A stretch of 59,387 nt of DNA, from NCBI GenBank assembly GCA_905331295.1, contig CAJNYD010000201.1, positions 62,001 to 121,387 on the forward strand, written 5' to 3'. Under the pieces are notes generated by a model, which worked only from the letters and a program-made list of their open reading frames with translations, was not told where the DNA came from and did not search any database. Source of the stretch: Rotaria socialis (taxonomy: Eukaryota). The translations under genes and the position numbers were made by a program. This document shows positions 15,745-41,838 of the stretch, one piece after another. Each line of letters starts with the position of its first letter. Positions within the stretch are counted from its first letter, which is position 1.

Positions 15745-17054
15745 ATGCAACTTTATCAGTTTATTACTCTTGTGAGTACTTTAACTTGTCCTTTATTGAC
15801 AAAAAGTGAGATCTCACCAGTTCTTATAAATAAATTCGAATTAGCTCATCCTGGCTTTTTAACGCTTCTTCGTACATGGACATTAAATTCAACATCATGG
15901 GGTTTATTTATTTCTTGTTTCAATGCAATTCCAGAAACTACAGACTCTGTTTACAGTGTACCTAATATAGGACAACAATTAACAACACAGATTATACCAA
16001 CACGTATAACCAGTCAAATAACATGGCCGAACGGTATCGTATCAGCAGATCCATTAGTAGAATATTCTATGATTGTTCCAAGTGGTTTTCTTGTGCCTGG
16101 TAAAACTAACGGAAATCTTTATTTCATCTCTGAAACTACTATAACACCGTTAGTACCAAGTGATAAAACAAATTGGTTCTATCATGATGCTGAATTCAAA
16201 GATATGGACGGAGATGGCTTTATTGACATAATAGCGGGACGTGCAAATGTTCCATTAATCGGTGCACCTAGAACTCAATTAATTTGGCTGAAAAATCCAG
16301 GAAATCGAACGATAACTGGTCCTTGGAAACTTAACTATTTACTATCGGATGGTGGACCAGAAATTCAAGTACAATTTGCCATAGTTGATTCCTTACAAGT
16401 ATGATCTGTTGGTGCTGAAAAAAATTTGAAAATTCTTTATTTTTATTATTTTAGGTTCTTTTTGCGAATTCATTTTTTGAAAGGAAACTTCAAATGTTTT
16501 GGTCTGATTCAGATCCATTTTGGAATGATACTACTAAATTACATGTACGTCATATTGACTATGAACCACTTCCATATGCATACGTGCAATTAACCGTAGA
16601 TCTTAATGGTGATAATAAACCTGATCTACTTGTTACTGTCAATGATGAATTTAATGGTTCACTCATTGCTTATGAACTTCCACCTTCAGGTGAAATTCGT
16701 ACGGGAAACTTCGTAAAACATATTCTTGCAAGTGGATTTAAACCACTAACACAAGCCAAAGGTCGAGGAGCACCAGGAGAAGGCATTGCAATTCAATTTT
16801 ATTCTCTTGCTATTCGGAAGAAACCAATTTTAATATTGTCTGGTGATGATGATGGTTGTGTCTATTTGTTAGAAGCGATTCATGATAATGATCCATCGAA
16901 TTGGGAATATTCAACAACAATAATTCATAAATCTGAAAAATCAACGATTGGTCAAGTTACTGTTGAAGACGTTGACAACGATGGATATCTAGAAATGTTT
17001 GTACCTGCTTATAATGAAAACATAGTATACATTTACCGATTGATGGAAAAATAA
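15745..17054 (+). CDS. Secreted FG-GAP/VCBS-repeat (beta-propeller-like) protein; exons 15745-16398 and 16455-17054
   Basis: Signal peptide and Ca-binding repeats DMDGDGFIDII, DLNGDNKPDLLV and DVDNDGYLEMFV. Intron 16399-16454 (GTATGA..TTTTAG) joins the ORFs in frame. Confidence 0.85.
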
Positions 17055-17270
17055 TAAAACAAGTCTTTTCGTATGATTTAGTTTTCATTTCTATTCGATA
17101 TTTTTACATCAATATCTAATTTAATTATAAGAATAAAAATATTTATTATATTTAAAGTTTTTTATGCACGAAAATGACTGAATATCACGTGGCAAACATC
17201 ATTTTTTGTAATGAAATTTCTTTTATTTGATAAAAATCTTAACTATGAAGAGTACACAAAAATGAAATTG

Positions 17271-20200
17271 CTATTTTATGTGATGCGCCTCGGATGATTT
17301 TGTTTCGAAGTAGAAGACTATTGTCGGATTTTTCCATGTTGTTGATGGTATTTTTGTATCAAAAACTCCATTCCAAGGAAATTTTAATGGAAGCTCAGTA
17401 CTATTGTTTGTTTTTATCGTTTTAAATGATTCGATTGTTACAGTTGAAAATGGACATGGGCCAAATATAGCTGTTGAACATTTATTTATGTTTTGTTTGG
17501 ACGATGAACATAATGAATGTTTATAATTTTCACAGAACTTTTCAAATTCATACTCATTCGTTTTCATTCGTTCAGCAAATTTGAATTTAAAGTCTAACAG
17601 TTCTTTTTCTGTTAAAGACGCTTTTGCGGGACATTGTTTAAGCACAATGAGTTGCTGTTTACAAGTTTTCTTAAAATCTTGTTTCATCTTTCTACTGTTT
17701 TTTGACATGTTTTTATTGTTAGAAAAACAAACTAGTGAAGTGCTTTTTCGAATTGATGTTGTTTGAGAATCAATATCATTTAGATTTAAGTTTTTACAAG
17801 TCATTTCTTCTTGATGTTTTAATATCATTAACGATCTCTTTTTTAATGAGCCGCTTATAGTACGATTATTATTCTGTTCAGCAAGATTATTGAATTCTTT
17901 TTCTATCGGATAATGCTTTCGTAAGGATAATAATAAATATGAATTTCGTAAAACTTCATTCAACATAGGGAAAATCGCTTTATTAACATCACCAGTATAT
18001 GTAAATGGTGCAATATTTAATGTTGTTTTAAAATTTTCTATTTTGTTTAACCATTGTTTGTAAGATAGGATTCCAATATTAAACCATACGCATTGCTTGA
18101 TTTTATCTTTTTTTTGTTGCTTCTCTGGACTATCTAGAGTTTGTAAATCTATCAAGAAAGAAAATATGAGAAATAAGTTGTAAAATCAATGGATACACAC
18201 AGCAATACCACTTATTTTCATACAAATACTTTCTGCATTGATTTTCTTTTGCATGAATAATATCTTGTATTTTTTCTGTCAGGTTGTTTTTATCATTGTC
18301 AGTTATTTTTCCTTTTTCTGATTTAGCTAAATTTTGAATATAATTTTCATACTTGACTTTGTTTTGGTCTGGTGTTAGTAGAAAGTCAAATTCTTTATTA
18401 GTTCCTACACATTTGATAGGACCATTCGCCTGTAAAACATTCGATTGATCAGATGCTTGCTTAAATGAGTGGATATAACTGTTTGCTATACATTGGAACT
18501 GAAATCAAAATTGATTAAACATCAATTGAAGATGGTGTTTTCTTTTTTCAATCATGTAGCTAAGTAACTTCATATGAAATCATTTTCAAATGATATCGAT
18601 TAAAAGTGAAGAGCGTAACATAAAAAAAAGGGTGGATCGAAGTGAATAGCTAGCTAGTTAAACAACGATGTTTTTTTTTTATCGAAAAATGGAAATTGGA
18701 CATCCAACTTTAAGACAAGAGAAAATATCTTACATGTTACATAAATCAACTGTTTGATCAGAACATGATGGAAAAAAAAAAGAATTTTGTACTCAATTTA
18801 TTTTATCTATGTTTATGGCAATACGTCCATGTACCACTAGACTTGATAGCTTTGTAGAGATTTTCAAATATATATACATATATCCAGTTTTCTTGCTTTT
18901 TAAAATTTGCTAGTCAACAGACGATTTGGCTGCGTTTCACTAAGATATAAAATGTAAGAAAAAATATCTTCTGTAAGAGAGAAAGTTTTATTATCGATTT
19001 ATTTCAACAGGAGAATGTAAGTAAAATACATTAGATGAATTTTAAGGCGACAAAATTTAGCCCACAAGTTACTTGAATGCTTATTAAAGATAGAAAAAAT
19101 AATATTTTCTTGCAGTTTATTAAAGACTCATATATCTTACAATGAATGATATGAATCTTGTTCAATTTAGAAAATTTTAAAAACAGCCCGTATTGAAATG
19201 CATTAAAATCTGTGATTAAGCCATAAAATTAAAGTTAAAAATGATGCGATAAATATTAATATTCAAATTTAACCTCGATTAATTATTCTCTTGATTTTAA
19301 CAATCAACTCAAGTAAATAAGTAGTTTTACATGATATGAAAAACTAATTTTCTATAATTCAAGTGAATTCGATATATTGCTTTCGTTTTGATAAATGTCA
19401 AACAAACTTACAAGTTTCAATAATAATTTATCATATTCTAAGTTAAAATGATTTTCTGATCCAAATAATTGAAAGTATGATTCTTTTTCAATTAACTTTT
19501 CTAACCATTCGATTGGTTCATAATTTTGAACTTTTACAGGAATAATGCATTTTCCTATTTGATTTGCATATTTTGCTTCTTGTTCACATAATTTATCATG
19601 AAAATAATTTTTACTTATGCAAAGAATAATACAATAAGATTTGTTTACCATTTCAAAATGTTCTTCATTGTTTCTTGATTGATTTAAATTTAACCATACA
19701 GAAAAACCTTCGTCAATAAGAAAATTAGCTAAACGTTGTGATACTATTGAATCATCTGGTGAATAACTCAACATAATAGTATAGTCAACAAATAATGTTT
19801 CAGTTGAAAATAATGATAATAAATTTGTTTTTTCTTGAGCTAATGTTTTTATCAAAGCATATTTTTGTTTAACTTCATAAACACTGTTTATCGGGCCATG
19901 TAATACAACTTTTTCATCGTTATCTAATTTAGGTAAAGTACATCTATCTATAGAATATTTATAAAAAGCATTGATCATGTCTTGATTCCAATTTTCAAAT
20001 CCATCTAAGTTTATTTTAAAAATTGATCGGTTTAAATAATTATTTATTCTTTTTTTACATTGCTTTAAATTATCTACATTTGAACATGCAAGAGTTATTT
20101 GAATAGCTAGAAAAATAGACAGAATATATTTAAATAGAATTTTTTAAACGATAAAACATAATTTGAACATAAAAAACTTACACTCTAGAAAAGTCAAATT

Positions 20201-23200
20201 AAAATTAAGAAAGAACCATAATTGTAGGAAGATAAAGATAAAGTCTTTGCTTTTTGGCACTCTATATTAGTCATCATAAAGTTTGTTAAATTTCTTGATT
20301 TGAATTAGAGACATGCACAGGACAACTTTTGCTGTCTTGTCGTGCTAGCACCCATGTCCAGGCGGGCAGCAGGACAGGGCGAAATTTGAACTTGCGTTCT
20401 ATCTCGTTCTGCCCTAGGCACGTCTCTGATTTGCATCAATTTTTATAAATGCACAAAAAGTTAAAAAAAGAAAATTAGTCCAAGATCAATGTACTAAAAT
20501 GCGAATATAGCTTCAATATTAACTTAGCTTAGCCTAGCTAATTTGATGTAGCCGATAGTGTGAAACATTTATATATATATATATACTCTCTCTCAGCTAA
20601 CGTCATGTAAACTTAGAGGAGGAGTCTTCCGTATAATGGAATATTTTATTGTTAATATCTGTAATCCAGTCATATACTTGTGTTGGTTAAATCTGAAAAG
20701 AACACATACACTGGCTACTACGATCAGTATTGTTTCTCACATTTAACTAGCGTAATCTCTCATTAGTCAATAATTGATATAATGAAGAAAAGAGTGGGAT
20801 TTTGCAAAATTTTGCCTTTAAATGTATCCTTATCATTTGTTCGAAAATGTATGTCAGTTTTACAATATTATTTTTTAAGATAAGTAATTTTCGGAAAATG
20901 TTTTGTGAAACACGATCTGAAAGGAGTGCTGAAGTATATAGGGTAGACATTTGGGCCCATCGCCCGCCCCCCCCCCTCCCACAGACCGTTACAGAGAAAT
21001 TAATGAATTCTTTTCTCTGTAACGGTCTGTGGCAGTTTCTAGAGACTCGATACATCATAGTACAGACCGTGACAGAGAAGCTTCACAGACTATCACTGAC
21101 CGTTATAGACGGATTCCAGAAAAAGAGTTTCATCGTGTTTCACATTTTAATCCCACAGGAATTGTACTAACAGCTTTTAACATCTAGTTTACATCATAAA
21201 GATTATAAACAGTCTTATTTCAAAATATATGATAATTTTTACGGTTCAGGAAAGTAATGATAATGTTTCAATTTATGAAATAATAAAATATGAGTTTATC
21301 AATACTGTTTTTATTATTCTGTATATATGTAATAATTACTATTGCAATCCTATCAATTCGATTGATCATTCAAATTGAACAGATTTCCTATAATTTGTTG
21401 GTTCTTAATATAAATTACGTAAAATCTTACTTGTTGCGGGACATAAAAAAATGTCACAACAATCTTTTCCTGTTTGTATTGTTTGAATAATATTTAAAAA
21501 TAGTTGATGTAACGTCTGCTGATCTGGTAATAAAACGAACGATACTTTTAATGAGACAACTTTTGCCAAATTAATTTGATTGATTGTTTCTTCAATCATT
21601 TCTTCTGCTAAAATTTGTTCGTGTTTACATGAGTCGGGAACTGCAAATGCAATTGTTTGTGTGGTTAAATTTGCTCGCTCACATTCCTTGATAACATAAC
21701 GAATCGATTTCGAAATATATAATTGAATTAAATCACTCAAATAGTCTTCATCGAATATTATAGTTGGTAATGACCAATTCACAAATAAAATTTTTCGGCA
21801 ATTTAAATGTCCACCAGTTGTTTCCGTAATAAATGGAATTGAACTCAATCTATTGTCTTGTTGATACGTTTGACTTGATGGTTGTTGTTCAATTATTTCA
21901 CCTGCTCGTTCAATTAAACTTTCTTTTAATCCGAATGATGTAGATGAAATAATAATAATGTCGACCTAGAATTATCATCAAAATTAACATTTCGATAAAT
22001 TTAAAACTTACGTTTTGTAAAGCGATGTCACCCATAACAATTTCAATTGAACCATTAGTTAATTTCGTTTGAGAAAAAACTAGTGGAGATGAACAAAATG
22101 ACTTTGATTGTTCTATTATTGATTTTGATACCAATGATGAATTTTTATTAGATCTTGGTATTCGATAAGATTTACTTTTGCTTTTTAATGCTAATTCACA
22201 ATAGCAACGGTTTTGTTGAGCAAGTTTTTTTATATGCAAATATAATTTTTCAGCAATATCATAATGTAATTCTTTACTTTTGAATGTACTTGTTTTCAAA
22301 TTAGATAATAAATTTAAGATAGAATTTTCTATTTTATTTTTTAAATAGTGTGGAGCATAAAATTGATTTTCTCGAATATTTAATTTTATATAATCATTAT
22401 GAAATTCTCTTGCAATATCATGTAATTGTTCGATACAAAAATTTGCAAGATATTCAAGCTGTTTTTTAAGAAAACAAAATCAATGAATATTTAAAGAAAA
22501 TAATAAATCATAAAAATATTGCTTTTTGTTTTGTTTTAGTTAATAATTAGTATAGTAGCATGGATAATGAATCTTATAAAATAAAAAGTGAATGAATCGT
22601 TCTCAACTGTTTACAAACAGTAAAATGAAAGAAATCACACATTGAATTCTGGATAATTCAAAATCTTTATAAATATATTTAACACGGAATCTATGATTAG
22701 GAAGCATTGAAAATGATGCAAATAAAATCAAGAAACAAATATTTTTATCTTGTTTTAGCAAAAGAAAAACTTCGAATGATTTCTGTATGTTAAGTAAAAA
22801 ATACTTTAACAAACGTGATGCTCATCAGTAACGTGTAAGTATCAATTGAATCGAATCTATGTTTTTGCTTAAAATATTAGATTCCTATCTAACAGGGAAG
22901 AGCTATAAATAAAACAGGGACATACTTGTTCAGATGAAATTTGGCCAAATTTATATTTTCTCAATCGATATTTATCAAATAAATTTTTGAACTTTTGAAA
23001 AACTTCATTCACAAGTTTTTGATAACCAAATATTTTAATGATATGTTTTGTTTTATTTCGATTTTTAATATATGGATTTCGTGTAACAGATATTAACATA
23101 TGATCTTGTTCATATTGATTCATATTTTCATTGAATTCTTCATCATATTGTTTTGTTGAACTAATTTCAAATTTTGATAAAATTTCATTTGTATGCAGAT

Positions 23201-25371
23201 GTATAAATTCAATAATTTGAGTTGATTTATTTGTTGAAACAAGAATATTTAGCTGTAAAATATGATTGTGAATAATATCATCAATATCAATAAGATTTTG
23301 AAAAGAATTAAATTTTTCATCATCGAAATAATAAACTTCTAAGATTTTACTATTCAATCTATTCCATTGGCATACAGTAAATAGATGAGTTTTATCATCT
23401 AAGATATTTTGAACAATACCAATTGATGTTATGTTAAATAGCCATGTTTTAACAATATTTTGATGATATATTTTCGATTTTATTGACTTGAATAAGTTTT
23501 TGACAAAATTTCGAACAACTCGATTTTGTTTTTTTCTTCCAATGAATTTTATTGTATAATCAAATACTGATTCTTCATCGTTTGAATGCACTTGTTTTAT
23601 TTCAATTTCAATTGCGAATGTTTCTTGTTTTATATAATTAATTAAATGTGAAATAAATTGAGGTTTTTTGAAAAATTCAATTTGAATTTCATCATCAATT
23701 AAGTAAGTTGTTTCACATATTGAAGTATTCGAGTTTTTCTTTGTAGATTTTTTAGAAACAATGTCCAGTTGGCGTTTATCCTGAGAAATAAAATAAATTC
23801 AATCGATGATATAGCAGAATCTGTATATAGTAGTAATAAAACAAATTTTGATCGATACTTCTTGTATGGCTTTAACCAGTCGATATATCTTTGAATTCTA
23901 TATGTGGTTGGATTTAATGATCGACTTGTTTTCAAAAAGTTCACCTTGCATCAAGTATATGGAATGAATACGAAACTCTCGCTATATATTACAACTTCAG
24001 TGAATAGTCTATGCTAAAATGTTCATCTTAATTTACCGAGATGTTAGATGGAGATTCAGCAAAAGAAAAGTGACTAATACTCATTTTGAACAATCGAAAT
24101 TCTGTATCTAATCCTCATTCTAATATAGTATGAATGCTCATGTTTTGTTCCATAATAATTGACAATGGCATTTCTTTTCTTAAATTTTTATTGTTGACGA
24201 TAAAGACAAAATGATGATGACTTCACTAATTCAGATAAATTTAAAAAACTGTTCATCTTTATTTTGAAATGCTTTTCTTTAGAGCAATAAAAACTGACCA
24301 AAAATAAACCAACTCAGACGATTAATACGACTTCTAGATGTTCCTGTAGAAAAATAAAGCAAAAACTCGGTATGATGAAACTCCATAGATAATTCAGCAA
24401 AAAAAAATGACCAAAATGCATAGCTTTTAGATGTTTTAGAAGTTACAGAAAGTATGAAAATCATCAATAAAAAACGAGATAAACTATAAAGAAAAACTGT
24501 GTTATCTTAGAACTATAAAATCTCATACTGGCATCTCATATATTTGTCTTAGTATTTGATCTTATTAACTCGTTCTTTTTTTTAAAGAATGAAATCCTGG
24601 AAATATAAGTCAAAATATCTCTAAATATGCGTCTGAAGAAAATACTGATCTTGTGAACAACTAATGACTTGTTTTAAAGTAAAGATCGAATAATGATTAA
24701 TGTTCTAAGTAGTTTAGAGCATATTTTAACCAAACTTCATATAATGAGGCGATTATGACTGTAAAAAAGCTATCATCAATATTCAGTGCCTGTTGAATTC
24801 CTTTTCAATTCAAAATACTGAATGGAAGATTATCGATAACTAGAAAACAGGAACAATGTGTCTTGATAAAAATCTCTTCTAAAATAAATTTCTAACTTTT
24901 ATTTAGTAATTCATCATTCCCAATATTTACCGCATTGAAATCTGTTCTATGAACCATAGTTGATGGAACGAATTCAGATGAAACATTGTCAACTCTAAAT
25001 AACATTAAAACATATTAAAATCGAGATAATCTTCATCGAAAATTTTCTTCCTCAATATGATTATTCTGATTTTTTTGTTGTATCTCCATCTTCAATTGCA
25101 TTAATTTTGTTTTAAATCTACTTGTTGCCCCAATAGTCGATTTTTCTATCGATCCATCTGCGTTGATTTCCAAAATGAGTTGCGTTATATCAGCATCGGT
25201 TAGTTTCATTAGAGATAACCCGTCTATGTTCCTATCTAACACAATAAGAAAAGAGATTTACCATTAATGTGTAGTGCTATAGAAATGACTACCTTTGAAT
25301 ATTTTCGCCTGCTTTTTAAAACCATTTGCTTTCAACCAATCAGTAACCTTCTTCACTGTCCAATTTGCCAT
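17271..25371 (-). CDS. SAM - KH-like repeats - Macro - TIR multidomain protein, copy A. Predicted exons 25371-25293, 25235-25052(?), 24994-24931, 23780-22926, 22458-22012, 21965-21431, 20106-19412, 18498-18201, 18148-17271
   Basis: SAM: MANWTVKKVTDWLKANGFKKQAKIFKDRNIDGLSLMKLTDADITQL. Macro: IEIVMGDIALQNVDIII..LIERAG..ETTGGHLNCRKILFV..TIAFAV. TIR_2: IMLSYSPDD..LANFLIDEGFSVWL..IILCISKNYFHDKLCEQEAKYA..IIPVKV..WL. Splice phases are consistent, except that the exon 2 donor reads GG instead of GT. The gene is colinear with the plus-strand paralogue. Confidence 0.78.
20306..20428. mobile_element. hAT-type MITE (123 bp) in an intron of TIR gene A
   Basis: TIR TAGAGACATGC versus reverse complement of the right end CAGAGACGTGC. 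Flanking 8-bp target-site duplication atttgaat / atttgcat (7/8 match). Confidence 0.72.
20979..21032. repeat. Perfect 21-bp inverted repeat (hairpin) with adjacent direct copies of the arm
   Basis: CCACAGACCGTTACAGAGAAA, a 12-nt spacer, then TTTCTCTGTAACGGTCTGTGG. It is preceded by a C-run, and related units ACAGACCGTGACAGAGAA (about 21062) and GACCGTTATAGA (about 21098) follow. Confidence 0.85.
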
Positions 25372-28264
25372 GAACTGCAAAATTAAGCATAGAATACGGT
25401 CACTGTCTTCAAAAAAAAAGACTATTGAACACTTTCAATGAATGAATGCTCTACAAAAAGTTCTTCACTTTGTTTTCAGCTCATATTAAGTCTATAAGCA
25501 TTTTTGACTGAGACTAGTACTTTTTTTTATGCAACCTTCGATCCAGTTTCGGATATATTTGGAAAATCTTAGATTAGAGCTTTGTTGCGAACTTTTACTC
25601 ATTGATAGAACAAATAATCAATGCAATATCCTTAACTTTTTCAATCAAAAATGATAGTATATTTCGTCACGATATTGAACGTTTAAAAACTAATTATTTG
25701 CCAGAAAGCAATGAGAAAAAAAAGAGTTTACTTGCATATTTATTATATTAATGTCATAGAAAAAATCGATGGCTTGGTTTTTTTGTGAAATATCGTTATT
25801 TTACTTATTTTATAAGATTTCACGAAATATTTCAAAATATAGATTATGAAACAACTGTTTGTTCCCCTGTGAACGATTCATAGGAGTTACTAGAAATCAT
25901 CCGTTGGGTAATTCTTTATTGTTTATCGATTCTCGCAATTTCATGTGTGAACGTTTTGTTTAGAATAAATCTAGATTAAATCAAAAATTGTATTGCGTGA
26001 CATAATTTTTTTTAATTTAGCGTTCAGGTATGATTTTTTTCTTTTGCAAACTTCCAATTTATGTTATACTAGTCTGTTTAGAATTCAGTATATCTCAGGA
26101 CTATTTAACTTACGTAATCAATCTGTATTGACTGCCGTCACTCGCATTCAGTGATTTCACACGAAGGATAAATTTCTACAGTGACATTCAATTTTCGCCC
26201 TGTCTTTTCTCGATAGTTGTTCACTGTCTAATGCCATTTTCTCAAAGAAAAGTAACAACTCAAGTACATAGAGAAAGAAAAGAAAAAAATCTCTGAGGCA
26301 AAATTCATTTTCTTTAATTGTCTTAGCACAAGGAATAGTAACTGTCGTATAACTTTGGTAAGTTTTGACTTTGTAATAATAATTAATAACATAACAGTTG
26401 TCTATAATAAAAAAAAGTATATCCCTCTAATAAACACTGCCATCGTTTTTATGGCTTTTGAAGATTTTTCTTTTTTCTGGAACGTTAAGACAAATCATAT
26501 TTGTTTCAACGTAAATAGTTTCAAGATCTAACTTCATGATTATGCAATCATCGTTTATCAGTGTTATTTTTGGATAATTATAGAAAGATTTGTTTTTTTT
26601 TGCTATTTTCTATTGTCCAATAGAAATAATTAATGGCGACAAAAGAGAATATTTACGATAGTAAGTTTCATCAGTTTTTTTTTCTTACTCATAAGATAAT
26701 ACTCGATTATATAAGTTTCAATACGATGATAGATATTTCGAAAATAAATCAAGAATATTCATTCTTATTACCGACTGAAATCCGATCACAAATATTACTT
26801 CTGAAAAAGAATAATCGGTATTCTCTAGGAACAGCTTTCCTCTATTCTTGTTTTCTGCTTCGACAGGACTTTCAAATTTCCTTTTCTTTTTTTTCTATTT
26901 AACAAAATTTACTATTACCAGACACTAGATTCTATTCGTATCGCGATTTCTCCAGTGTGAGATGGCTCTAAGTATGTTTTAACAAAAACAAAATCGTCGA
27001 TTATTAATGCGGTAAAATTGATTGATGTTAACCAAATTCATTTTTTCATTAATTGAAGTTTAAAAGAAAAATTAGGAAAAGGCTGGCATACCAACAATAT
27101 CGATAGAAAAATAATAATCTTTTCGACGGTTGTAATAGTTTGATTTCTTTTTAATATAAAAAGAATTGTATGTTGTTTTTTCGAACTAAAAATTAATGTA
27201 AAATTCGGACTAATGTTGGGAAAACGTTTTGATTGTCGATAATATTTATTTGGTAACAGGTAGCACTTCCAGATGAGTATTGCATGATCAGAATGCATCG
27301 CAAGACACAGCCAAGAATATCATGTCTAGATTCTAGAGTATAAATTTCGACAAATTTCATTTACACAAAAATCTAAAGGACTAACGTTACTTTTCTTTCT
27401 ATTTCACATTTTTACCAAACTAATATTTGAACAGAAAGAAAATTAAAAATAAATAATTTTCTCACGTAGAATAATAGTAAAAAATAAAATACTTCTACAA
27501 TGATGAAAGGGTTGCCATAGAAAACGGAATTCATGATCACGTTAAACTCAAAGTTTGAAAAAGTGAAGTCGTGACTTGAACAATCGTATGAATCGAAGCA
27601 ATCAAGTTATAATGGTATTTTTTAGCATTACTGCATACTGAGAATTTCTTGTAATAAAGAGAATGTAAAATGTTGAACTTTATGGGCCTATATCATCGTT
27701 CAATCGAAAAGAAAGTTCAGGTCGATGTAATATTCAACAATTAAGCAATGAATTACAACATTTTTTTAAAGACTTCCAGATGGATTATTGTTGACAAAAA
27801 AATATTTATTAATTATAAATAGGTACTTTATCGAAATATTTATATTTATGTAAAGACAATCGAAACGACTTTTTCGTCGGTCTACTTTGTTGCTATCGTT
27901 TTCTTTCGCAAAGTCTTCACGAGAATTTTCATTCTTGACTTTCTCACGGCCAGGATCACAAAACATGAGTATTTAGAGCATTATTAACTACTAGATTTCT
28001 ATATTACATTTCTCTATAATTGGAAGGAAACTGGTGAACTGATATAATCTGAAATGTTACTCATGATTTTTTTCCAAACCAACTAGAGTTATAATACACT
28101 CTGGAGAGTACTACTATCTATTCAATTCATAATAATAATTGACTTATCATGAAGATTAGTTGACAAGTTTTAAAACTAGGTGGCATATTTGTCGCACTAC
28201 TATTTAAGTTATCCCTTTTATCTAGACTATGTAATATGCAATCACAATCTATTTAGACACATCA

Positions 28265-31200
28265 ATGGCTAATTGGACAGTCGATCAAGTTGGAAACTGG
28301 CTAAGAACCAATAATTTAGAGAGATATATCGAAAACTTCAAAAGTAAGAAATACTCTCATTGATTTCTTGGTCATGATTTAGTTATACATATGTACAATA
28401 GATGAAGATATCGATGGTATTGCTCTGATCGGTTTAAATGAAAATGATATTTTAAAATTATTATCTACAATCGATGAAGATGGAACAATAAAGAACTCTA
28501 CAATGAGAACACAGCGTAAATTTAAGGCAGCATTAGAACAGTATAGAAAGTTTGTAACACAGGAGAGAAAGAAACTTGGGAGAAGACGGTAATTCTAATC
28601 GTCATTTCTTGTCGTGAAATTTTCTTTCTTTTTTAGTTCAATAGAAAATAAAGAGCTTGATGCAAGTATACACGATGGTACAAAAAAGTAAATAAGAAAA
28701 GAAAAAGGAATATTCGGTAATTCTCTAAAAATCTTTGATTTTTATTACTCAGTGTATTGATGAAACCTTCAAGAAATATATTTCATACAATCGATAATGT
28801 AGGAACATACTCAAGATTATATACTGTTGAACCAATGAATATTAGTATGAAATTCTTCACCAGTGAATCAATTAGTTCATACTTAACAAAATATTATCTA
28901 AAAAAGTATAACGTTAGATGTTATATACCAATGCAACATCAATTTCATACACAAGTTTCACTATCCATTAAATTATCGGGAATCAAAGAGAATGTCAAAA
29001 GTGTTCACCATGATCTGCAATCATTATTTGAAACAATTAAAACAAAAATTTTCAATGATGAAGATAAAGATAAAAAAAGTAAAAGAAAAACGGAAATTAT
29101 TTTCATCACTATTTGTCTCTGGCTTGCGAAAATAAATTTTCATTTGTTTTTAGTTGTGCGGTGGTCTCGATATATCTATTCAGATTCTATTCTTACAGTT
29201 TTACAAAAAATCTTTGTCGATAAGAAAAAATTAACAGTCTGGGAAAAAACAAGTATATTATCCGGATTCTACATCGTTCATTATACTAGTGGCCAACATA
29301 TGTTTAGTGTTTCAGAAGAATTTATTAATCAAACACTTAATAATGAGATATCTTATGTTAAAGATATTGTTATAGAGAATATGGAAAGTATTCAACCGAA
29401 ATTTCGAAAAGAATTAAAAGAATTAATTAATGAAAAAAAACAACATCAACTACAAAATCCAACAATGTCTATTATTTATTGTCAATATCCTTCTCAAACG
29501 GATATGAAAATAAGCTTTTTTGGATTAAGAAATCATGTTGACCTTGCTAAAAAGCAGATTAAACTGTTGATTAACAAACATCGAATGAGAACAATATGGA
29601 TTGGACTTGATTCAAAACAAGTATGAAAAAGATTAGTTAGCCCGTTACTTAAAGGTTTCTTATACATATTTCGATATTCTAGATAAGGTAGTTATATTTT
29701 TAAAGTTAACCAACTGATTCTGTTCGAATTTTTTCGATTTCCAAATAATATACAACTGATATATTTGAAATTTGCGCCACAATTAGAGCATCTCAAATGT
29801 GTAATGAATGACTCGGAAAAAAAACGTTTTTTGTACAAATTTTCTGGCATTTTCTCGTAGAATCCGTAACTACATGTTAAACTACATCAGATAAACCCCA
29901 AGGAAATAGTTCCTGTTTCTAGTTGTGTTTGATGGTATTTGAAATGTTTTTGAAAATGCCTCGAACTTTGTTTCAAACGTCTTGTTTGCTTTTCTTTCAT
30001 AAGACAAATCTAAAATCAGCATATTAGCATCCATCATTTCATCAATTTAGATACAAAATTTACATAAACGAAAACTATCAATAGCATCGTTAAAAAGTAT
30101 TCCTAAATATCTATGATTGCAAGTTTACCGGATTGGATTATATTCTCAATGAGCAGAAAGTCGAGTAATTTAATAATATTCGTCTGACTATTGATACGAT
30201 TGAAATCAAAATTTTTACATAAAATATTTCGATTCAATGATAGAACAGTTTTATTTCTTGATTATTTTCTCATCAGATGATCACATAATTACCAACCATA
30301 GTTCGCAAATTGAAGATAAGATTTGTGTATATGATTCAAATCAAAATAGCTTCAGTATTTTTTCATTTTTAATATGAATTTGAAACTCATTAACGTTATC
30401 ATTAGAGATACTGATGGTCACTGCCCTTTGGCCAAATGTTTTTAAAATAAGATCCGACAAAGAATGTTCTAAGAGGTCACGATTTTCTGCCATTTGATGC
30501 GACGCTTTGAAATGAAATTTTTCTTGTGAAATATAAACATCGCAAGAATTACTCCCACTAAAACTTTGTACATAAAAAATAATGTTTTCTAACAGACGCA
30601 ACTACATCATCTATTGATTTCGATTCTGTGTTTGACCAATGATTTCATCTTTACTTTATTCATCCGATCGATTGATCGTTAGCAACAAGCTTAGATTTTA
30701 CAGATAAGGTTGTGAGCATATTCTATTGAAGATAATTCTTACACTATTCAGAATTTTTCATTTACTTTGAAAAATATTTTCAGAAATTTGAAGAGAATTC
30801 TCAACAAATCTGTTAGATATAAAAATTGTTTTAATTATACATCAACTAATCTTTGGGTTTTAGCGTGACTTACTAGTAGATAACTATATGCATGAATTAA
30901 AAAATGTAGAATTCAATTATAAAGATGATAATCTTAAAATTAATATTCGTGAAAATATAATTACTGCTCCACAATATTTAATTATGAAAATAAAACAATT
31001 AGTTCAATCAATGATTTCTCCAACAATTACTCTGATTTATCGACACATTAAAAATTCTTGTACATTTACAGAAAAAGATCATTCGAAATTAAAAAATCTT
31101 GCTGAAAGTTATTTTTGTGAAATTGATAAAATCAATATAGAAACAAAGAAAGAACTTCTATTATTACCTAAAGGACAGGCAAAATCAACGTCAAAATTTA

Positions 31201-34200
31201 TTATTAAAGAATCAAGCCAATTCTATTCTTCCTTGTCAATATGGAGAAAACTCGCTGTATCAAATCATACAATAGAGATTCATAAATCATATTATTTTAA
31301 AGTTAAGTGAATAAATCAATTATTTTTATTTTATTATTATTTTACGATTTTCTAGGTTGATGTTACAATTATATCAACCGTAGTAGACGCCATTAAAGAA
31401 AAAATTGACCCAAAATATGGAAATGGTTATTTTGAATCTGATACTGGTAAAAGAGTTTTATTTATTGATTGGTCACCATGCATTTTACAAAAAGACAATC
31501 ATCAGATAAATGAATCAATAAAAAATTTCATTTCTACATCAATTCAACAAATAGATAGACTCTGTACAAATGTTGTCGAAACAATTGGATTCGCAACAAC
31601 AGATTGGGAAAACTATAACAATAGAAAACAATTAATAGAAAATATTCTGCATGAAATGATAAAGCAACTTTCAATTCGCGACTTTTCTAATCTTTCATGG
31701 AAAATAGTATTTCTATTTAATGATGAACAAAATGATCTTTTTAATGAATTTTCACAAGCTATTTTAGCATTACAAACAGATAGAGATAATTATGAACAAT
31801 TTTTTTATCCAATATCAAGTACGTCACAATTGAAATTAAGAAAATAAAGTTAAAGGAAATATAGCGTATAAAACAAAGATCTGATCTCACCGTAGATATT
31901 TTGTTCTAACATTAAAATAAAACTTAATCAAATGTCAAAAGAAAACATTAAAAAGTATCATAGTTTCATTTCCTTGGCTCCTATTGAATATTGTGAACAG
32001 ATTTCGATGATGAAACTGACAAAAAATAACTTTTTTCAAACTTAAACATATTTCATATTAGCCACACAGTAATTATGCATCTCACTATGACATATGTCAT
32101 ACTCTATGAAGGAGAAGTGATGATATTAAGAAGTTTTTTTCGGTCTTTGATTGACACTTGCTTCATAATTAAGAGGATGTATTAAGTTTTCACATGTATT
32201 TTTCAACAGTATTCAGATTTCTTTTCTACTATTAGAAGCATTCGAGCGTAAATTCTCGTATGTATTTTAGCTAGTAACATATCTATGAAAATTAAAAACA
32301 ATACTAATGTAACTTAAAAAATCTTGTTTAGTCAGTCGAGAGTCATGTTCGTGCTGTCCTAAAAAGTTTCCCAGATCTCTTGAAGTCACATGTGCTTCGT
32401 AGAACGAAAAGAAAACACGAAGATGTTATTATGTAGGAAAAGAAAAGACATCTTTCTTATATCCCCAATAGGACAAAAAACGTATTGAGACAATCGATAA
32501 ATAACTAAGTGTGGATTCATTTTCATAACTCTCACATCAGATAAGGAGATTCGGGTTAAAACATGCGAGTTTCACATGCCAATCCGTAATAAATGTTCTC
32601 TGAGCATATTGTGAAAGAAATTAGAAAATATTAAAATAAAAGAATTCATCAGTAGTCGAATGCAGAAGCACAAATAAGTTTTAATTCAAATTATTCAATA
32701 TTCTCACCAACGTCAAATAAAAAACATCAAACTAGTAGCAGCGGATCACTAAGTAGATAAGGAAATAATTGAGCAAGATGGTGACGATATTCATTTAAAA
32801 ATTAAGATACTTGCACTGAAAATAGAAGACAGATGCGCGGTATATTTAGTGAAGGAATTGAGAAAAGTTGGGGCCTGTCACCTTTCTCAAAATTTTCCGA
32901 TTTCAAACGTCATATCTCATTGTTTTTCCTGTTGTCTCGAACCCCAACATCGAATACCTCAGTATTTTCGAGACAATTCTGATTGTTTTATGGAATGGAG
33001 CAAACAAGACTTGTCGGGAGTCGGAACCACCTTGCAGGGCTCTGTTAATATCAAATAAAATCAAACACTATTATGTTTAAGTTTGATATTACGGACTCTT
33101 CATTTCTTTAATGGATTTAACTTGAATTAAATTCAAATGAAAATGTTTAAGATCACTATAACACTCTATTTTAAACTAGAAACTGATTACTTAGCCATTG
33201 AACATAACAAACTTTCTTTTATATAGCAAACAACCATTGATTGGAACTTAAAAACCTATCTTACTTCGTTTTCTCTTATCTAATTTTAGCTGCTTCCATT
33301 ATATTAAAAACGTCAAGCAATTCAAATATTTCCAAGTGTAAAAGATCAATCAATGATTATATGAACAAACATGTACTTACAAAAATCAAATTGAACTATC
33401 CGTTCTATGCTGAGATATGGAATAAAGACATGATTAATTCATATTACAAATATTGCCTTGAAAATTTTGTTTTGCCACAGATTATTCAAATCGATTTACA
33501 AAACGATCAACAGCAATCTTTAGATCTAATAGGGCCAATTTGTGCTGTTAATCAAGCTGTACAAAAATATGAGTTGATGTCAGATATTGAACGGCAACGT
33601 ATATTAATTTATACTGAAATATCAGAATCGATCGAACAATGCCCTATAAATCCAACTTCAGTATTAAACACAACAACTGATTCTTCCAATATTTTATTAA
33701 GTTGTTGTTTTGCTGATAATATCCTGTCACGCCACCTTACCAATCGTTTGATTGAGGAAGGCTATCAAGTATCACTTGACTATTCTGATAAGACATCGTC
33801 AAGTATCGTCTCAAAAATCAAGAAAACAGATATAATTGTTGTTTGCTTTAGTTCTAATTATTCAGAAAATGCTAATTGTACGAAAGCACTACATGCAATA
33901 AAATCGTCCGAAAAGAAATATATACCGATTATGTTAACGCGAAGTTCATTGAATCAAGAAGAGAATTGGCTTCAAGTAATGAACACCGAAGAGTTATATT
34001 ATGAATCATTTAATGAAGAAATAAAATTCAAGTTAAACGAAGATTTAGCCTTAGACTACGATAAATTATTGATTGAATTAGTAAGTTTTCTTTTTGACGT
34101 ACAGAAGAATGAGTTTCAATCGATTCATTCGTCTACCGTTTATTATGACAGATTCACTTTCAAGAAAGCATTTAGTTAAAGTACAAACTATACATTAAAT

Positions 34201-37200
34201 GCAATATCTTATTTTATTTTTGCTAAATATTTGTTTTCAGGAACTATGGAATTATTTTTGCGTATTAAAAATTGTACTAAATTAATAGCCACGTTAACTA
34301 AAACTTTGTTGAGTTTTTGTAAAATCAAGAATATTTCAATTGATGTCGGCACTTCATCTGCTTTAACATTTGAGAATACATCGACAGTAAAAGGAAGTTT
34401 AGTATTTTGTTGAAAATCTCTTGATAGGAATTCTCTGAAAATTTGTATGCCCATTAAAATCATTCATTAGGTTGTCATAAAAGAAATCAGCTTCATAGCT
34501 TTGTAGATTGATGTACTCATCATTGTCAAATCGAGAAATGCAGCGAGATCTTTCCGAATCTTAACTTATCTCTTTTGAATCATCTAACACATACTAAATT
34601 TTCTATCAACAATCTATATATATATACATACATATATATATAATGTTCAGTGTGTGTCTGTGTCGGGTCAAAGGTTAAAGGTCAAAGATATTTAGAATTT
34701 TCTAGACCTTTCTGGAACCATATGAAGTCAAGTAGACTTCTAGAAAATTCCATGACTTTCTGGAATGTTCTAAAATATCCTAGAATTTTCTCTGAACTAC
34801 GACACAATCAAGTGAAACGATGAAGGTTAAACTGAGTCGTGTTATGTTACCAGAAAATTTTAGAAAGGCGTAAACTTTTACCGAATATCCTAGGATCACC
34901 TAAAATTATCCTATCCTGACTGCACGGACTCTATCGGCAATTAACAAAGAGAATGAACATGGAGATAATTGCGATTATTCATTAGACACTAACGAAGATT
35001 TCATGAGCAATATGATACTATGAAATGAAATATTCTTTACTTTATGCATGTATATTTATAATCAGACTCAAATATTATACTTTAAAAGAAGAGAACTGGA
35101 TTCTTTTTTGAAATCTAAGTTGGACCTGGAGGAAACTAAATTTACGAACCAAAACGTGGTAGAATTCGAGTTCAGTCTGATAGGCTCTATCGTGCATACT
35201 GCACGGGACCTCGCTAGTATTCATAAAATACTAAGTTCTCAATGTTCTCGAATTCTTCACATTTTCAAACGCTGCAGTAAACTAAAAAAGATTTTTATAT
35301 TCATAGCTACATTATGCAAAACCTTGTGCAGTTGGTGCAATTTACATAATATCTAATAAAAACATTTTAAACAATGAGGAGCAAAAAGAAAAACATGATC
35401 AGTCAAATATAGTCACAACAATTACGCCAGAACAAAGTCAAGAACAAGAACAAATTTATCAAAAACGTATTGAACAAATTTTAGAGCGAGATCAAATTTC
35501 ACCAGATGAAATAGCAAACTTAATGCATTGTTTAAACATGATTCTTGAAGATTGTGCAAACGGAAAATGTTCAACTTCGTTAAACGAACAAGAACTAGGA
35601 CAATCTATTAGAAAATCTAGACGCATAACAACGGAAAACGAAGAAAAAATGCAACTTTATCAGAATGATTTTGAACAGAAGCAAGACAATGATCAAAATA
35701 AGCATGAAGAAAGTGAGTAGCACTTGTTCGCACGAATAATTTGATGAAATCATATTTTCTGCCAAGTATTTACTATTTAGGAGTTTATTGAAATCTTGAA
35801 ACATATTAGAATCTATTGTATAATCCGATAGAAACAACTAAGCTTTCAAAATAAAGTCATTAAGAAAAAAAGAGAACAATAATGTGTACGGGCAATTTAT
35901 CATAGTAAGGAGATTTCCAAAATAGTTGTTTTCACTAATTTTACATCTAGACAGAATTAGAATGCCTGTAAAATTAGATGTTGCAATGAACTCAAGGACA
36001 AACTGCTTTTTAATGATACTATACGTCCAGCAAAATATTGAATTCTGAGCACTTCTTTATTGCTAATAAAACATTTCCTAGTAAAATTCTACATTCGACT
36101 TCATGCTGTTCAATTTTTAGAAGTCTACGAGACTAGACTATATTTAAATGATCAATTAGTCGCATTAGAAAATTTTCGCGTAGTAATGCGAGTTGTATTA
36201 GCATTTCAATGTCCAACATGATATTCATGCAAAAAATAACAAGAAGGAATTATACTTTGCCGTTTTGTTCATAGATAAACTTGATGATAACTGGAATGTT
36301 TTAAAAAACTCAACCAGAACAGATACTTCTGTTCAGAAATATTCATACATGAAATGAAAGGCAATGTTTTACTTGTGATTCTCAGAACTCTTAAGAAACA
36401 AGTATCTGTTCTGTTTAAAACTTTCAAAAACATTAAACAGATTAACACCAGAGCAAACCAATTTAGAAGAGGTTCTTTTAATGTTTTTCTTTTCAGGTGT
36501 GACAAAGAATGTTTCAACTTATTTCAGTGCTTTTCTATCAATTGTTCAACATTGGTTAGAAAAAGCATCAAATGGTTCTGTCACTAAAGGCAATTTACCA
36601 CCGTTTAGTTTAACTGGCGATTTTAATGATGCTATATTTCGAACATCTTCGAAAGACAAAACTCCATGGTGGGTAACAAGTGCGAGCCAATATGATTTTA
36701 ATTGTTCATCGCTTGAGTTTCCCTTAGTTTCACGGTTAATGACTAGTTCGTTTTGTGATGGCGATGAAGCACATAGTTATTTCCGGAATTTGATCAATAG
36801 AGACATTCAATTTCTAGAATATAAAGAAAAGCAACATCAAATGAAGTCTAAGCGAGAACAAAAAAATCAAAATAGTATATTTAGTAGTGGTCCACATCAG
36901 TCGCATTTCAACACAAACATTAAAAAAGGTACTATTGTCTGGGATATTATTGAAGATAAAGAATTTCTACAAGAATATGAAAAAAGAAAATCGGGAAAGC
37001 TAATAAGAAATCCAAATAGACTCTCGATTGGTTGGAACCGCTTGTTGGATCGATCAGTACAATTAGTAGCAGACATTAAAGATGGTAAAATTAACATGGC
37101 ATCGAACGAGGTACAAGGCAAAATTGGCAAAGCACTCAAAACAATGAAAGAAATCAGAAAACTTAATGTGTTAGATGATGTAAATAATGAACTTTGGAGA

Positions 37201-37299
37201 AAAAAACGTTTTCCTCTTTGGCGACAACAATTTATTGAAATGAAAATATCCAATACGATTCAATGGCAAGAATTCTGTGCAGCACAAGAAAATCAGTAA
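28265..37299 (+). CDS. SAM - KH-like repeats - degenerate Macro - pseudo-TIR multidomain protein, copy B. Predicted exons 28265-28343, 28402-28588, 28637-28687, 28753-29078, 29154-29620, 30864-31301, 31356-31818, 33290-34080, 35307-35712, 36497-37299
   Basis: SAM: MANWTVDQVGNWLRTNNLERYIENFKNEDIDGIALIGLNENDILKL. Blocks shared with copy A include KINIREN..APQYL, RVLFIDWS, TIGFA, WNKDMINSYYKYC and PPFSLTGDFNDAIF. TIR: ILLSCCFADNILSRHLTNRLIEEGYQVSLD..IVVCFSSNYSENANCTKAL..YIPIML..WL. All junctions are GT-AG with consistent phases. Confidence 0.82.
34613..35217 (+). mobile_element. Non-autonomous Helitron in an intron of TIR gene B
   Basis: 5' A|TC followed by a (TA)n tract; internal TTCTAGA/TTCTGGA repeats; subterminal hairpin CGTGCA-TAC-TGCACG (35191-35205); and a 3' CTAG|T end. 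It is inserted between A and T with no TSD. Confidence 0.8.
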
Positions 37300-37923: not shown

Positions 37924-40900
37924 ATGGATGTTTCACTTCAAAACCATCAGCCTGTCATTCGTCAACTACGTAAAATTGAATCGAATAGAGATGTAATAGC
38001 ATTGTTTAATGAAGTTATCTTAATTTTAAATAAAACAATACACAATCAAACTGATGGTTTTAAGATATTATCTACAATATGCTTTGAAATGGCAGGATTT
38101 ATTACACTTAAACCATTTAATAATCCGGAAATAATGAATCATGAATTTTTTATTATATTGAAACAAACGTTTCAAACATTATTAACTAAATTAACATTTA
38201 TTTCATTAGGAAAACAGGACGAACAATGTATTGATGGAATTAGTTTATTAATAGCCAATCTATGTTTATATAAAAACACAATATCAACATGTTTCTATAC
38301 TGATAATAACGAAGAACTAAATCCAATAAATGAAGAAAAATTTAGTTTTATATCATATGAAAAAATATTTTTCACAGACTCATTCCTTAAAAGATTTGTA
38401 AGAATTTTAGAAGATGATATAGCTGTACATAGTTATGACAAATATCATATTAAATATAAAATTGTTGATCGTTTACTTCGTCTTTGTATAAAGCTAAATG
38501 ATATTGACAAGAAAGTAATTATCGATTCTATTGTAAAATGTGTTGAATCAAAAACTTACATGAATTTATACCAAACCGTTGATCTTGGTCAACCAATATT
38601 AAGTCCGAAGGAATCATTCTTTTTGTTTCAATGCCCAAAATTTATTCGACTATGTAGTTTCGAACGACAAGATGAAATATCTAACAAATTATCAAAATCA
38701 ATAATAAAATATCATGGGAATATTTTTGAAAAAAATCTGTCAAATATTTTAATAGGCGAATTCGTCTTAAATTCAGCGATAGCTTCTTATGTCGAATTAT
38801 TAAATCATATTGCTTTAACATCAACAACAAGAGAGTTATTTATCAAAAGTAAGTTCAAATATATTTTCATAATGGATTCGTAGAAAAAGTATCACAGCAT
38901 AGCCTTTTCAACGTTCAGTGAACTTTTCAAATTTTTCAATGTATCATTACTTGTATACAAAATATTAGCGTTGAATCAGACGAAAATCATCGTTTAGAAA
39001 AATGAACAATATCTATTGCTACACAAGTTCTTTGAAATAATTTTAAAAGACTAACTATTTGTAGACTCATTAATTTCCAATTGTTGGTACGTGTTCTTAT
39101 TTTTATTAGACTTAGAGTATCAATAATCAAAGTGTTCTGTAGAAATTTTTGCCTATTACACATAGTTTCGAATAAGATAAACATACAGAAGATATTTTTT
39201 CTATTAACTTTCATAAAATAACCTACAATTTTTAAGACAATTAAGCATTTATTCAAGAGACGATCTTGAGTACTGCATGATATATAGACTTGCAGAAGAT
39301 CAGAATTCACTCACTACATAAGTTTCTTTTTAAAATGTTCCCATGTCTAATATACAAATATTTGTTCAGTTTCTTCTTAACATCTATTCGAATTTTGAAC
39401 ACTATTTTGCTTGTCATGAAATAAATCTATAATCATTATTCAGGTATATTCTTATCTGCATTATATAGTATTCTATTTATTTTTTTAGAATTTGATACAG
39501 ATAAAACTGTGGTAGATCAAATGATTGAAATATTAAAAGGATTATCATCAATAGAAAGTATTTATAGAAACACTAAATTATTCCATGCCGATGTTGCTCT
39601 TATGTCATATTCAATAGCTCTTTTGTATAACTTGACATTTGAGAGAAAAATTTTTTATGAACTAAGAACTCGAAATGTAAAAGATATTTGTAAAGAATTA
39701 TACAAAGCAAAAGATAAAACAATACAATTCGCATCTCGAACATTAGCTGTAATTTTAAACCAAGAAGATATTGATTCAATCGATAGTCCCTCAAAAGTAG
39801 CTAATTCTTATTTATATTTTATTGAAAATACAATTGACAATTCAACAGTTACCCATCATGGAATTAAATTAGATGGTGTCCTAATCAATCTTGAAGGTAT
39901 AATTTTCTTATTTTCAAAAATCTTTTCCTTTGCTGTTATTATTAAAATGAGCTTATGAAAACCGTGAAATATAAAATACTATATAACGATAATATTATTG
40001 TTATTTCTTTCGGGTAATGGTCATATATTGATATCATAAAAAAACAATCAAATAGACTTATTTAAACGACATTTTGTTAAAAAATAATATAAAAGCAAAT
40101 AAGCACAAGGCTACTTCCGTGAATAAAAAATAAGCTGAGTGGTAAATACTTCCTAAAAATAAAGAAATAAAATATTAGTAATTACTATGTATAGTATCTA
40201 GGGGCGAAAGAATCTTCCCTTAAAATATATTACCTTTGAGACATAATATTTCTTTAGATAGACCGATTAGAGACATTAGAAAAAAAACTTCAAAGAATTT
40301 ATATCCAAACACAACTTACTTCTTGGTGTATGGCCATTGTAGTAAATTATTCAATTAAATATCATAATCTTAGTTAAAATACGCAACTACTCTATCTGAA
40401 TCTATCAGACCTTCTGTCGAAATATAAGTAGAAGAGAAAATGACAATTAGAACATTTTGACTACGAACCAACATATCTTTAAAGCCTCGAAGCGAAAGAG
40501 AGAGAGAGAAAGAGAGAAAGAGAGATCTTCTCGATCTATTTTTGCATGCATAATCGAACTCTCAATTAGGTACAGCACAGATCAATAAAAAATACGTTGT
40601 CTCATGGAGAAACTCTTCCCCTACATTTCTACATATATCTCATTCAGAAATCAAACTCAGAAATTCAATAGTTTCCGACTGATTTACTCTCATTCCGTAC
40701 TAGATTCGTAAATTTTTTTAATTCAAAAATTGGTTTCAGCCAGATTCTCACATGTTGCGAAGAATTTGATTAGAATCGGTATAATTCTAAAAAGAAAACA
40801 TATCAAGATTAGTCTATTCAGGATTTTTCGGTTTTCAGTAAGTTCCAGTTAGAGATGTAAAATTTATTTCAAAAGAAATTGATCATTTGATGAAGATCTC

Positions 40901-41838
40901 TCATTGTGAAAATTTAACAATTATGGTGAAGTCGATTCCACCTTAACAAATTTTTGATATGAATTATAGCTAAGAATTTGAACACGTAATATTTTAATTC
41001 AATTTTAGTCATTATTCAAAGCGATGTGATCAAAGATGAAATTATTAATCATGACAATGGTATATTACTATTAGCACGATGTGCATATGAACCAAATCTA
41101 GATAATGAAACAATTCAACATCCAGCTCTTCGAATTATTGATGCAGTTTCATTCGGAAAAGATTCAGTTGTGAAACAGATAAAAGAAAACGATGCTCTCA
41201 TGAATCATATTAGAGAGTTATGTGATACAAATGATAAATATCAAGTAGTCACAGCTAAACGTATTCTATGGAAAGTAGATGAAGAATTAAAATTTGTGTC
41301 AACACAAGAACAACAAAAACAAAACGAAATAAAATTAATAAACGTTTTCGATGAAAAAAAAGCTATTTATCAGTATATACGAGGTGATCATTATTTTAGT
41401 TTAGAAGAGCATAAGAATTCAGGAAAATTTAACCTGATGATTAGTTATTGCCAAGAAGATAAAGATATTTGTCTTAAAATTTATAATCGTTTAACAACAT
41501 CAGATTGTTATAAAGTTGCATTCGATAAAGATAATTTACACACTGCAAATCCAAAAGCCATGGCAAAAACAGTTGAAAATTCATCGATTATTCTTATTTG
41601 TTTTTCAACAAAGTATCAAAATTCATATGCAAGTCGATTAGAAGCTGAATATACTATGAAACGAAATCGGCCTATTATTCCAATAAAAATCGATCATCAA
41701 TACAATTCAAGAGGCTGGTTAAAAGAAATTATTGACAAAGAAAAATATATTGACTTTACAAAATATGAGTTCAATACTTCATTTACGCAATTAATTGATC
41801 AAATCAATGAGCTACGTGAAAATCTTCGTAAATTATAG
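37924..41838 (+). CDS. Helical-repeat (ARM-like) + C-terminal TIR_2 protein; exons 37924-38848, 39489-39896, 41009-41838
   Basis: ARM-like segments (YSIALLYNLTF..KTIQFASRTLAVIL; GILLLARCA..ALRIIDAVSF..TAKRILW). TIR: FNLMISYCQEDKDICLKIYNRL..VAFDK..MAKTVENSSIILICFSTKYQNSYASRLEAEY..IIPIKI..GWL. Two phase-1 GT-AG introns join the three ORFs. Confidence 0.88.

Follow-up and report, generated by a model that had tools for sequence, protein, structure and literature searches.

A conserved three-gene TIR cassette of bdelloid rotifers that includes a Glu-less TIR protein

Genes and domains in the window

The window analyzed here is a stretch of 59,387 nt from Rotaria socialis (contig CAJNYD010000201.1, positions 62,001 to 121,387 of the forward strand). 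It contains three neighboring genes that encode TIR domains: A and B, which lie head to head, and a third gene, ARM-TIR, downstream of B (Table 1). Gene B matches a 1336-aa R. socialis protein (P0001) at 99% across 10 exons, which bears out the claim of an earlier note on this DNA that its reading frame is intact. Gene A matches a 1260-aa R. socialis protein and ARM-TIR a 720-aa protein of the same species; A orthologues of 1283 to 1351 aa carry SAM and TIR_2. The intergenic region between A and B is likely to serve as their shared divergent promoter.

Table 1. Coordinates of the three TIR genes and their principal features in the window
Feature	Position	Strand	Content	Basis
Gene A	17271..25371	-	SAM, KH-like repeats, macro (GDI kept), KH-like linker, TIR (Glu), C-terminal region	exon map to P0009
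A TIR	19406..19777	-	Glu codon at 19579-19577; Asn replaces the usual beta-B Asp	
A SAM exons	25371-25293 + 25235-25052	-		sequence
Divergent intergenic region	25372..28264	.	between the start codons of A and B; 2.9 kb long in the window, 274 bp long at L002	
Gene B	28265..37299	+	SAM, KH-like repeats, degenerate macro, KH-like linker, pseudo-TIR, C-terminal helical region; 1336 aa, intact	
B macro-fold domain	31240..31817 (start approximate; one intron inside)	+	lacks GDI motif; ~20-residue deletion	
B pseudo-TIR	33691..34080	+	beta-A motif at 33700-33708; Ala codon at 33886-33888	alignment, Pfam TIR_2, model
Third gene, ARM-TIR	37924..41838	+	helical-repeat (ARM-like) region, TIR; 720 aa; Glu codon at 41641-41643	P0323 exon map

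A and B are paralogues with approximately 25% identity. Their domains align one for one, their N-terminal SAM domains are 44% alike, and their C-termini differ. The C-terminal regions of A (17274-18498) and B (35307-37296) share a conserved PPF-x-x-x-G-D-x-N-x-A-x-F motif. A Pfam search of 12 full-length A and B proteins recovered SAM and TIR only, and NB-ARC and LRR were not found; the family SAM profile matches the SARM1 SAM. A structural model of B residues 379-1336 contains macro, KH-like, TIR, and helical parts. Domain alignment revealed no domain in B that is absent from A, with the C-terminal 400 aa of B modeled at low confidence. The KH-like modules match Pfam KH_PARP14_2 weakly (E 0.039), and the GxxG motif is absent from the first 800 residues of the six proteins checked. 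Querying a structure atlas with B yielded nothing usable. For the third gene, the ARM-like assignment is a lead only, based on Pfam ARMC9_ARM (E 0.025) and on atlas neighbors with Arm and SARM1 at 0.86 to 0.91. TIR_2 is the sole Pfam domain of the ARM-TIR protein P0323 and no SAM was found in it, so it has no tandem SAMs between ARM and TIR. Among the named minority of 119 representative matches, all relatives of A and B are bdelloid.

The macro domains of A and B differ at a G-D-I motif, which follows macro strand 2 and is a feature of ADP-ribose binding. The A macro has a profile match to the PARP14/PARP15 macro (E 7e-4), and a Foldseek search with the B model retrieved the macro folds of PARP9, PARP14, and macroH2A. 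Aligned to the GDI of the PARP14 macro, the D-I of the motif is kept in all 14 A-type proteins, and GDI is absent from all 17 B-type proteins. As judged from this motif, the B macro has lost its ADP-ribose feature, and A retains what is expected of an ADP-ribose-binding macro. Because B-type proteins that still carry the catalytic Glu of the TIR also lack GDI, the macro asymmetry predates the loss of Glu described below.

The exon structure of A is unusual at its 5' end. Joining the A SAM to the rest of the gene requires the removal of 57 nt (24995..25051, minus strand) that start with GG, not GT or GC, and include a TGA at 25035-25033. The apparent intron is GG..AG, and an unspliced A SAM exon meets the stop codon. 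The SAM is missing from the NCBI gene models for A of both R. socialis and R. magnacalcarata; the A SAM exons are still 72% identical to A of R. sordida. Either the splice is non-canonical or the SAM may have become uncoupled from A in this lineage.

Catalytic residues, selection, and linkage

The Glu of helix alpha-C is needed for TIR NADase activity. The earlier note had read Ala at this position in B and Glu in A and ARM-TIR, and the codons are as claimed: GCA (Ala) within NCTKALHAI in B, GAA (Glu) within LCEQEAKYA in A, and GAA (Glu) within ASRLEAEYT in ARM-TIR. All three fall into a single alignment column, in which the B Ala stands opposite the Glu of RPS4 WCVRELE. The note's description of this residue as a Glu after an alpha-C Cys is correct for the Glu of ARM-TIR but not for the Cys, because the residue three positions before it is Ser. 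Its reading of the B beta-A motif as S-C-C in place of the usual SY(S/C) was also right. In the B TIR, the catalytic Glu is replaced by Ala, the beta-A Tyr by Cys, and the beta-B Trp by Ser. The domain is otherwise recognizable as a TIR, with a Pfam TIR_2 E value of 2.4e-8 and an AlphaFold model of the TIR exon (pLDDT 90) that has a complete TIR fold and places the Ala (residue 203) in a helix at 198-209, alpha-C. In fold comparisons the model has a Z score of 12.4 to RPS4 and 12.3 to SARM1, and Z scores of 12 to 14 across TIR structures. By alignment of 23 clade members, we found no conserved substitute near the site in helix alpha-C.

We rejected an assembly error at the B site. Contigs of three DNA runs span it and list no alternative letter, which rules out an assembly slip but no more than that, because the window itself may derive from these runs.

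The absence of Glu from B is old. At the catalytic column, Glu occurs in none of the 15 proteins of the B orthologue clade and in none of the eight of its sister clade, as opposed to 45 of 46 TIRs from outside the family, the single exception being a probable alignment shift. The B clade and its sister clade form one group with 99% support in a 91-row tree, from which nine near-duplicates were dropped and to which seven outgroup TIRs were added; all trees used here are quick or FastTree trees and are unrooted. The 23 Glu-less proteins of this group reflect one ancestral loss rather than 23 events. The B orthologues have Ala in R. socialis, R. magnacalcarata, R. sordida, and A. vaga, Ser in Silwood1 and Silwood2, Asn in A. 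steineri, and Val in A. ricciae, and the sister clade has Gln or His. Since the replacements include A, S, N, V, Y, Q, and H, what has been preserved is that Glu is missing, rather than any particular replacement. Further pocket positions have changed in the B clade, with the beta-A Tyr present in only 1 of 15 proteins (versus 43 of 46 non-family TIRs) and the beta-B Trp in none; the beta-B Asp is present in 12 of 15. Structural positions are fixed (alpha-A Asp, beta-D Pro, and alpha-D Trp, each 15 of 15). Equated by motif, the beta-A Tyr corresponds to SARM1 Y568 and the beta-B Asp to SARM1 D594, and both Y568A and D594A reduce SARM1 activity (PMC8266388, in part). In sequence and model, B appears to be a non-catalytic TIR, as the note had proposed. 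Its phrase "active/inactive" fits less well, as B lacks the Glu but A can only be called Glu-positive.

The window and L002, a metagenome locus, gave NG86 dN/dS values of 0.46/1.30 = 0.35 for B, 0.43/1.24 = 0.35 for A, and 0.53/1.54 = 0.34 for ARM-TIR, and a comparison of B with L001 over 63 codons gave 0.16/0.59 = 0.28; these figures are rough because dS is near saturation. TIR identity between R. socialis and R. sordida is 70% for B, 74% for A, and 71% for ARM-TIR, and between R. socialis and A. vaga it is 48%, 53%, and 52%, respectively. The interspecies identity of the B TIR is therefore at the level of the other B domains and of the Glu-bearing TIRs. The neutral evolution of B that the earlier note had named as a possibility is not borne out by a dN/dS of approximately 0.3 for its TIR, like that of the Glu-bearing TIRs, which indicates purifying selection. 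Fast evolution of B was likewise rejected, its identity between species being similar to that of A. Whatever its role, B is very probably a pseudo-TIR maintained by selection.

Across the wider family, Glu is kept in 27 of 38 proteins on the A side and in 14 of 42 on the B side. All 14 belong to the 19 B-type proteins outside B's own clade. The ancestor of the pair thus had two Glu-bearing TIRs, and because Glu-bearing B-type paralogues exist, the A/B asymmetry does not hold for the family in general. We also examined an apparent reciprocal case, a Glu-less A-type protein (P0073) paired with Glu-bearing B-types (P0079), and rejected it because the contigs differ in size.

A and B are neighbors in 12 pairs in which both sites are known, from Rotaria, Adineta, and one metagenome contig. 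Head-to-head orientation is directly visible in two of these loci, the window and L002, and adjacency in the 10 others. L002, one of two loci obtained from 439 candidates in a metagenome scan, has the order A(-), 274 bp, B(+), approximately 60 bp, ARM-TIR(+). In A. vaga the three genes have consecutive tags (011937 for A, 011938 for B, and 011939 for ARM-TIR), and there are further A-B pairs at 012163/012164 and 015440/015438. Adjacency in R. sordida, Silwood1, R. magnacalcarata, A. ricciae, and A. steineri (two pairs) was taken from neighboring accessions on contigs of equal size, and the Silwood2 pair was joined by equal contig size alone. At least four paralogous copies hold A next to B, the A-side and B-side trees mirror one another, and the ARM-TIR clades track three paralogue groups; the A-B(-ARM-TIR) block has evidently been duplicated as a unit. 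A Didymodactylos gene model fuses a B-type protein to an ARM region, so the adjacency of B and ARM-TIR is old. The head-to-head linkage has been conserved and has undergone repeated duplication, which matches the plant pairs with which the earlier note had compared it. ARM-TIR, which the note had used as a comparison only, instead belongs to the locus as its conserved third gene, linked to A and B in other species.

Within the 12 linked pairs, B lacks Glu in all 12 and A has Glu in nine. The Glu-less A proteins have Ile in A. steineri (where the Tyr is lost too) and Gln both in L002 and in the second A. steineri pair. The A clade has Glu in nine of 12 proteins and lacks the beta-B Asp (0 of 12; Asn in 11 and Lys in one), which is present in 44 of 46 non-family TIRs. 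ARM-TIR keeps its Glu in all five complete trios (the window, R. sordida, A. vaga, A. steineri, and L002). In four cases the losses are complementary: A lacks and ARM-TIR has Glu in A. steineri, L002, and a Silwood1 paralogue (A with Thr), and the reverse holds for an R. magnacalcarata paralogue, in which ARM-TIR has Ala and the linked A has Glu. Both genes of the second A. steineri pair have Gln. We found no ARM-TIR for that pair, and Rotaria ARM-TIRs of the same paralogue group have Ala, so this cassette may be devoid of Glu and could depart from the pattern. Glu by itself is no proof of activity, as TLR2 and IL-1R9/10 illustrate. One Rotaria sordida TIR, not necessarily a member of this cassette, is reported to make cADPR and deplete NAD+ (10.64898/2026.04.20.719644, in part).

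Possible roles of B and comparison with known systems

The reading we tentatively favor, and which we rate as somewhat short of probable, is that B is a non-catalytic scaffold subunit of a three-protein NAD+-cleaving TIR complex in which A, ARM-TIR, or both would perform catalysis. A and B would be coexpressed from their shared divergent promoter, and their N-terminal SAMs would co-assemble and cluster the TIR domains, as the SAMs do in SARM1. The SAM-less ARM-TIR would dock on this A/B platform through TIR-TIR contacts. NAD+ would be converted to ADPR or cADPR by whichever of A and ARM-TIR has Glu; either of them, seldom both, may lose it. The intact macro of A would recognize ADP-ribose, either for feedback from the reaction product or to register infection, and B would contribute surface but neither chemistry nor ligand sensing. 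A complex prediction for the TIR-plus-C-terminal halves of A. vaga A and B, run without alignments and with the partner fold uncertain, scored 0.00, which speaks neither for nor against a complex.

The earlier note had suggested that B may be an inhibitor of A. As a dominant-negative brake, the dead TIR would cap or dilute filaments of A or ARM-TIR until removed by a trigger, in the manner of RRS1 or STM1. The consistent lack of Glu in linked B proteins agrees with this, as do the beta-B Asp and fold that B keeps and that are required to join a TIR assembly; in plants, Glu-less sensors repress their executors (PMC13725568, in part). The view of A as an obligate executor is weakened by its loss of Glu in three of 12 pairs in which B is retained and by the missing beta-B Asp. 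Since B persists beside a Glu-less A (A. steineri twice, and L002), restraining an A NADase is not its only job, and restraint of ARM-TIR is still possible. On balance we regard a brake as rather unlikely. We also consider it unlikely that B is an ordinary subfunctionalized paralogue, that is, the product of an inverted duplication that lost catalysis, took on a separate adaptor role, and stays beside A because they share a promoter and rearrangement is slow, without forming a complex. Loss of Glu is common in the family, the low identity and unlike C-termini of A and B fit such a history, and an FG-GAP gene to the left of A also matches beside A in L002; part of the synteny is therefore background, and neighbors can travel without shared function. 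Against this reading, the right-hand flanks differ between the window and L002, and there are at least four paralogous copies with A beside B, mirrored trees, and three ARM-TIR clades that follow them.

A sensor or decoy role, also raised in the earlier note, would have the KH-like, pseudo-macro, or C-terminal region of B bind an effector or nucleic acid and thereby switch A on. The KH-macro layout of the PARP9/14 kind is typical of immune ADP-ribose proteins, and the B C-terminus is type-specific. Plant sensor NLRs offer an analogy (PMC13725568, in part). Against this role, domain alignment showed no extra integrated domain in B, the ligand motif is lost in the B macro and kept in that of A, and GxxG is absent from the residues checked. 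Decoys often evolve fast, and B is not evolving faster than A. The sensor claim thus found no footing, and we consider it improbable. That B is a decaying pseudogene or carries a recent neutral substitution would suit the variable residue at its catalytic site; given full-length frames in both Rotaria and Adineta, a dN/dS of approximately 0.3, and identity like that of A, we find this extremely improbable.

The closest parallels are the plant paired TIR-NLRs (RPS4/RRS1, CSA1/CHS3, and STM2/STM1), which are likewise head to head, combine one TIR with Glu and one without, and are duplicated as pairs; the RRS1 TIR lacks the catalytic Glu (PMC13725568, in part). The rotifer locus differs in having SAM, KH-like, and macro domains instead of NB-ARC and LRR, and is therefore not an NLR pair. 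It also differs in its third linked TIR gene, in the dispensability of the A Glu in some lineages, and in that we found no integrated decoy in B. By its domain content, the locus is a convergent animal variant of the plant pairs, homologous to them in the TIR only.

SARM1 is a homo-oligomer and is not known to have a pseudo-enzyme partner. The elements of SARM1/TIR-1 (an ARM-SAM-SAM-TIR NADase) are spread over the rotifer locus as ARM-like, SAM, and TIR_2 regions, and the B TIR model resembles the SARM1 TIR in fold; in contrast to SARM1, ARM and SAM lie in separate proteins, with a single N-terminal SAM distant from the TIR. It is possible, but in our view doubtful, that bdelloids, independently of plants, evolved a linked enzyme/pseudo-enzyme TIR immune module. 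In such a "split SARM1," the oligomerizing platform and the ADP-ribose readout would come from a SAM-KH-macro-TIR heteropair, ARM-TIR would do the sensing, and the Glu would be mobile among the three subunits so long as one keeps it. A and B resemble PARP9, PARP14, and PARP15 in a macro fold flanked by KH-like modules, and differ from them in having a TIR in place of the ART domain and one macro only, which is degenerate in B. Type II (TM-macro) Thoeris also combines a TIR enzyme with a macro domain, one that binds an ADPR-type product and oligomerizes (PMC11204291, in part); that system is bacterial, has its macro on a membrane effector, and has no pseudo-TIR, whereas the rotifer macro and TIR share one chain and product binding is putative. 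FAM118A/FAM118B, two animal sirtuin paralogues, process NAD+ weakly on their own and actively in combination (PMC12700824, in part), and they illustrate how B might activate a partner. They have a sirtuin fold rather than a TIR, and such synergy would be hypothetical for the rotifer pair.

The three-gene cassette is real and conserved, and apparently undescribed. Within the portions of the literature covered by our search, we found no animal head-to-head TIR pair and no description of this rotifer family, and among the supplements of PMC11258130, 12 of 16 files and part of file 13 had no TIR-annotated rows. Pairs of one active and one dead TIR gene are characteristic of plant immunity, and the locus provides an apparent animal counterpart at a time when animal TIR catalysis is only beginning to be surveyed (10.64898/2026.04.20.719644, in part). 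Its natural variants carry Glu in A alone, in ARM-TIR alone, in both, or in B-type paralogues as well. With three small domains, the role of a dead TIR within a TIR assembly (to activate, cap, or scaffold) becomes directly testable.

Neighboring genes and other features

In L002, an ADP-ribosyltransferase-TPR gene (14128-15723) follows ARM-TIR; nothing in the window matches it. In R. sordida, two gene models of ARM-TIR (P0321 and P0328) extend into a protein related to it, and a fourth, NAD+-using member of the cassette is possible on the basis of this arrangement. The window contains an ADP-ribosylglycohydrolase gene (7683-8897, minus strand; Pfam E 1e-58) 8 kb from A.

All three TIR genes of the window (17271-41838) have several introns of 0.8 to 1.5 kb in addition to the 2.9-kb spacer, and L002 is compact; relative to L002, the window locus has been enlarged by insertions in this lineage. 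One A intron holds a very high-copy short interspersed element of approximately 280 bp (20899-21179), with a summed depth of 8,500 to 18,500 versus 20 to 50. A B intron holds a 101-codon open frame without a Pfam match (32753-33058), possibly a mobile-element remnant. At 5077-6760 lies an intron-poor multicopper-oxidase-like gene with copper-binding His motifs recognized by eye, a candidate for horizontal acquisition.
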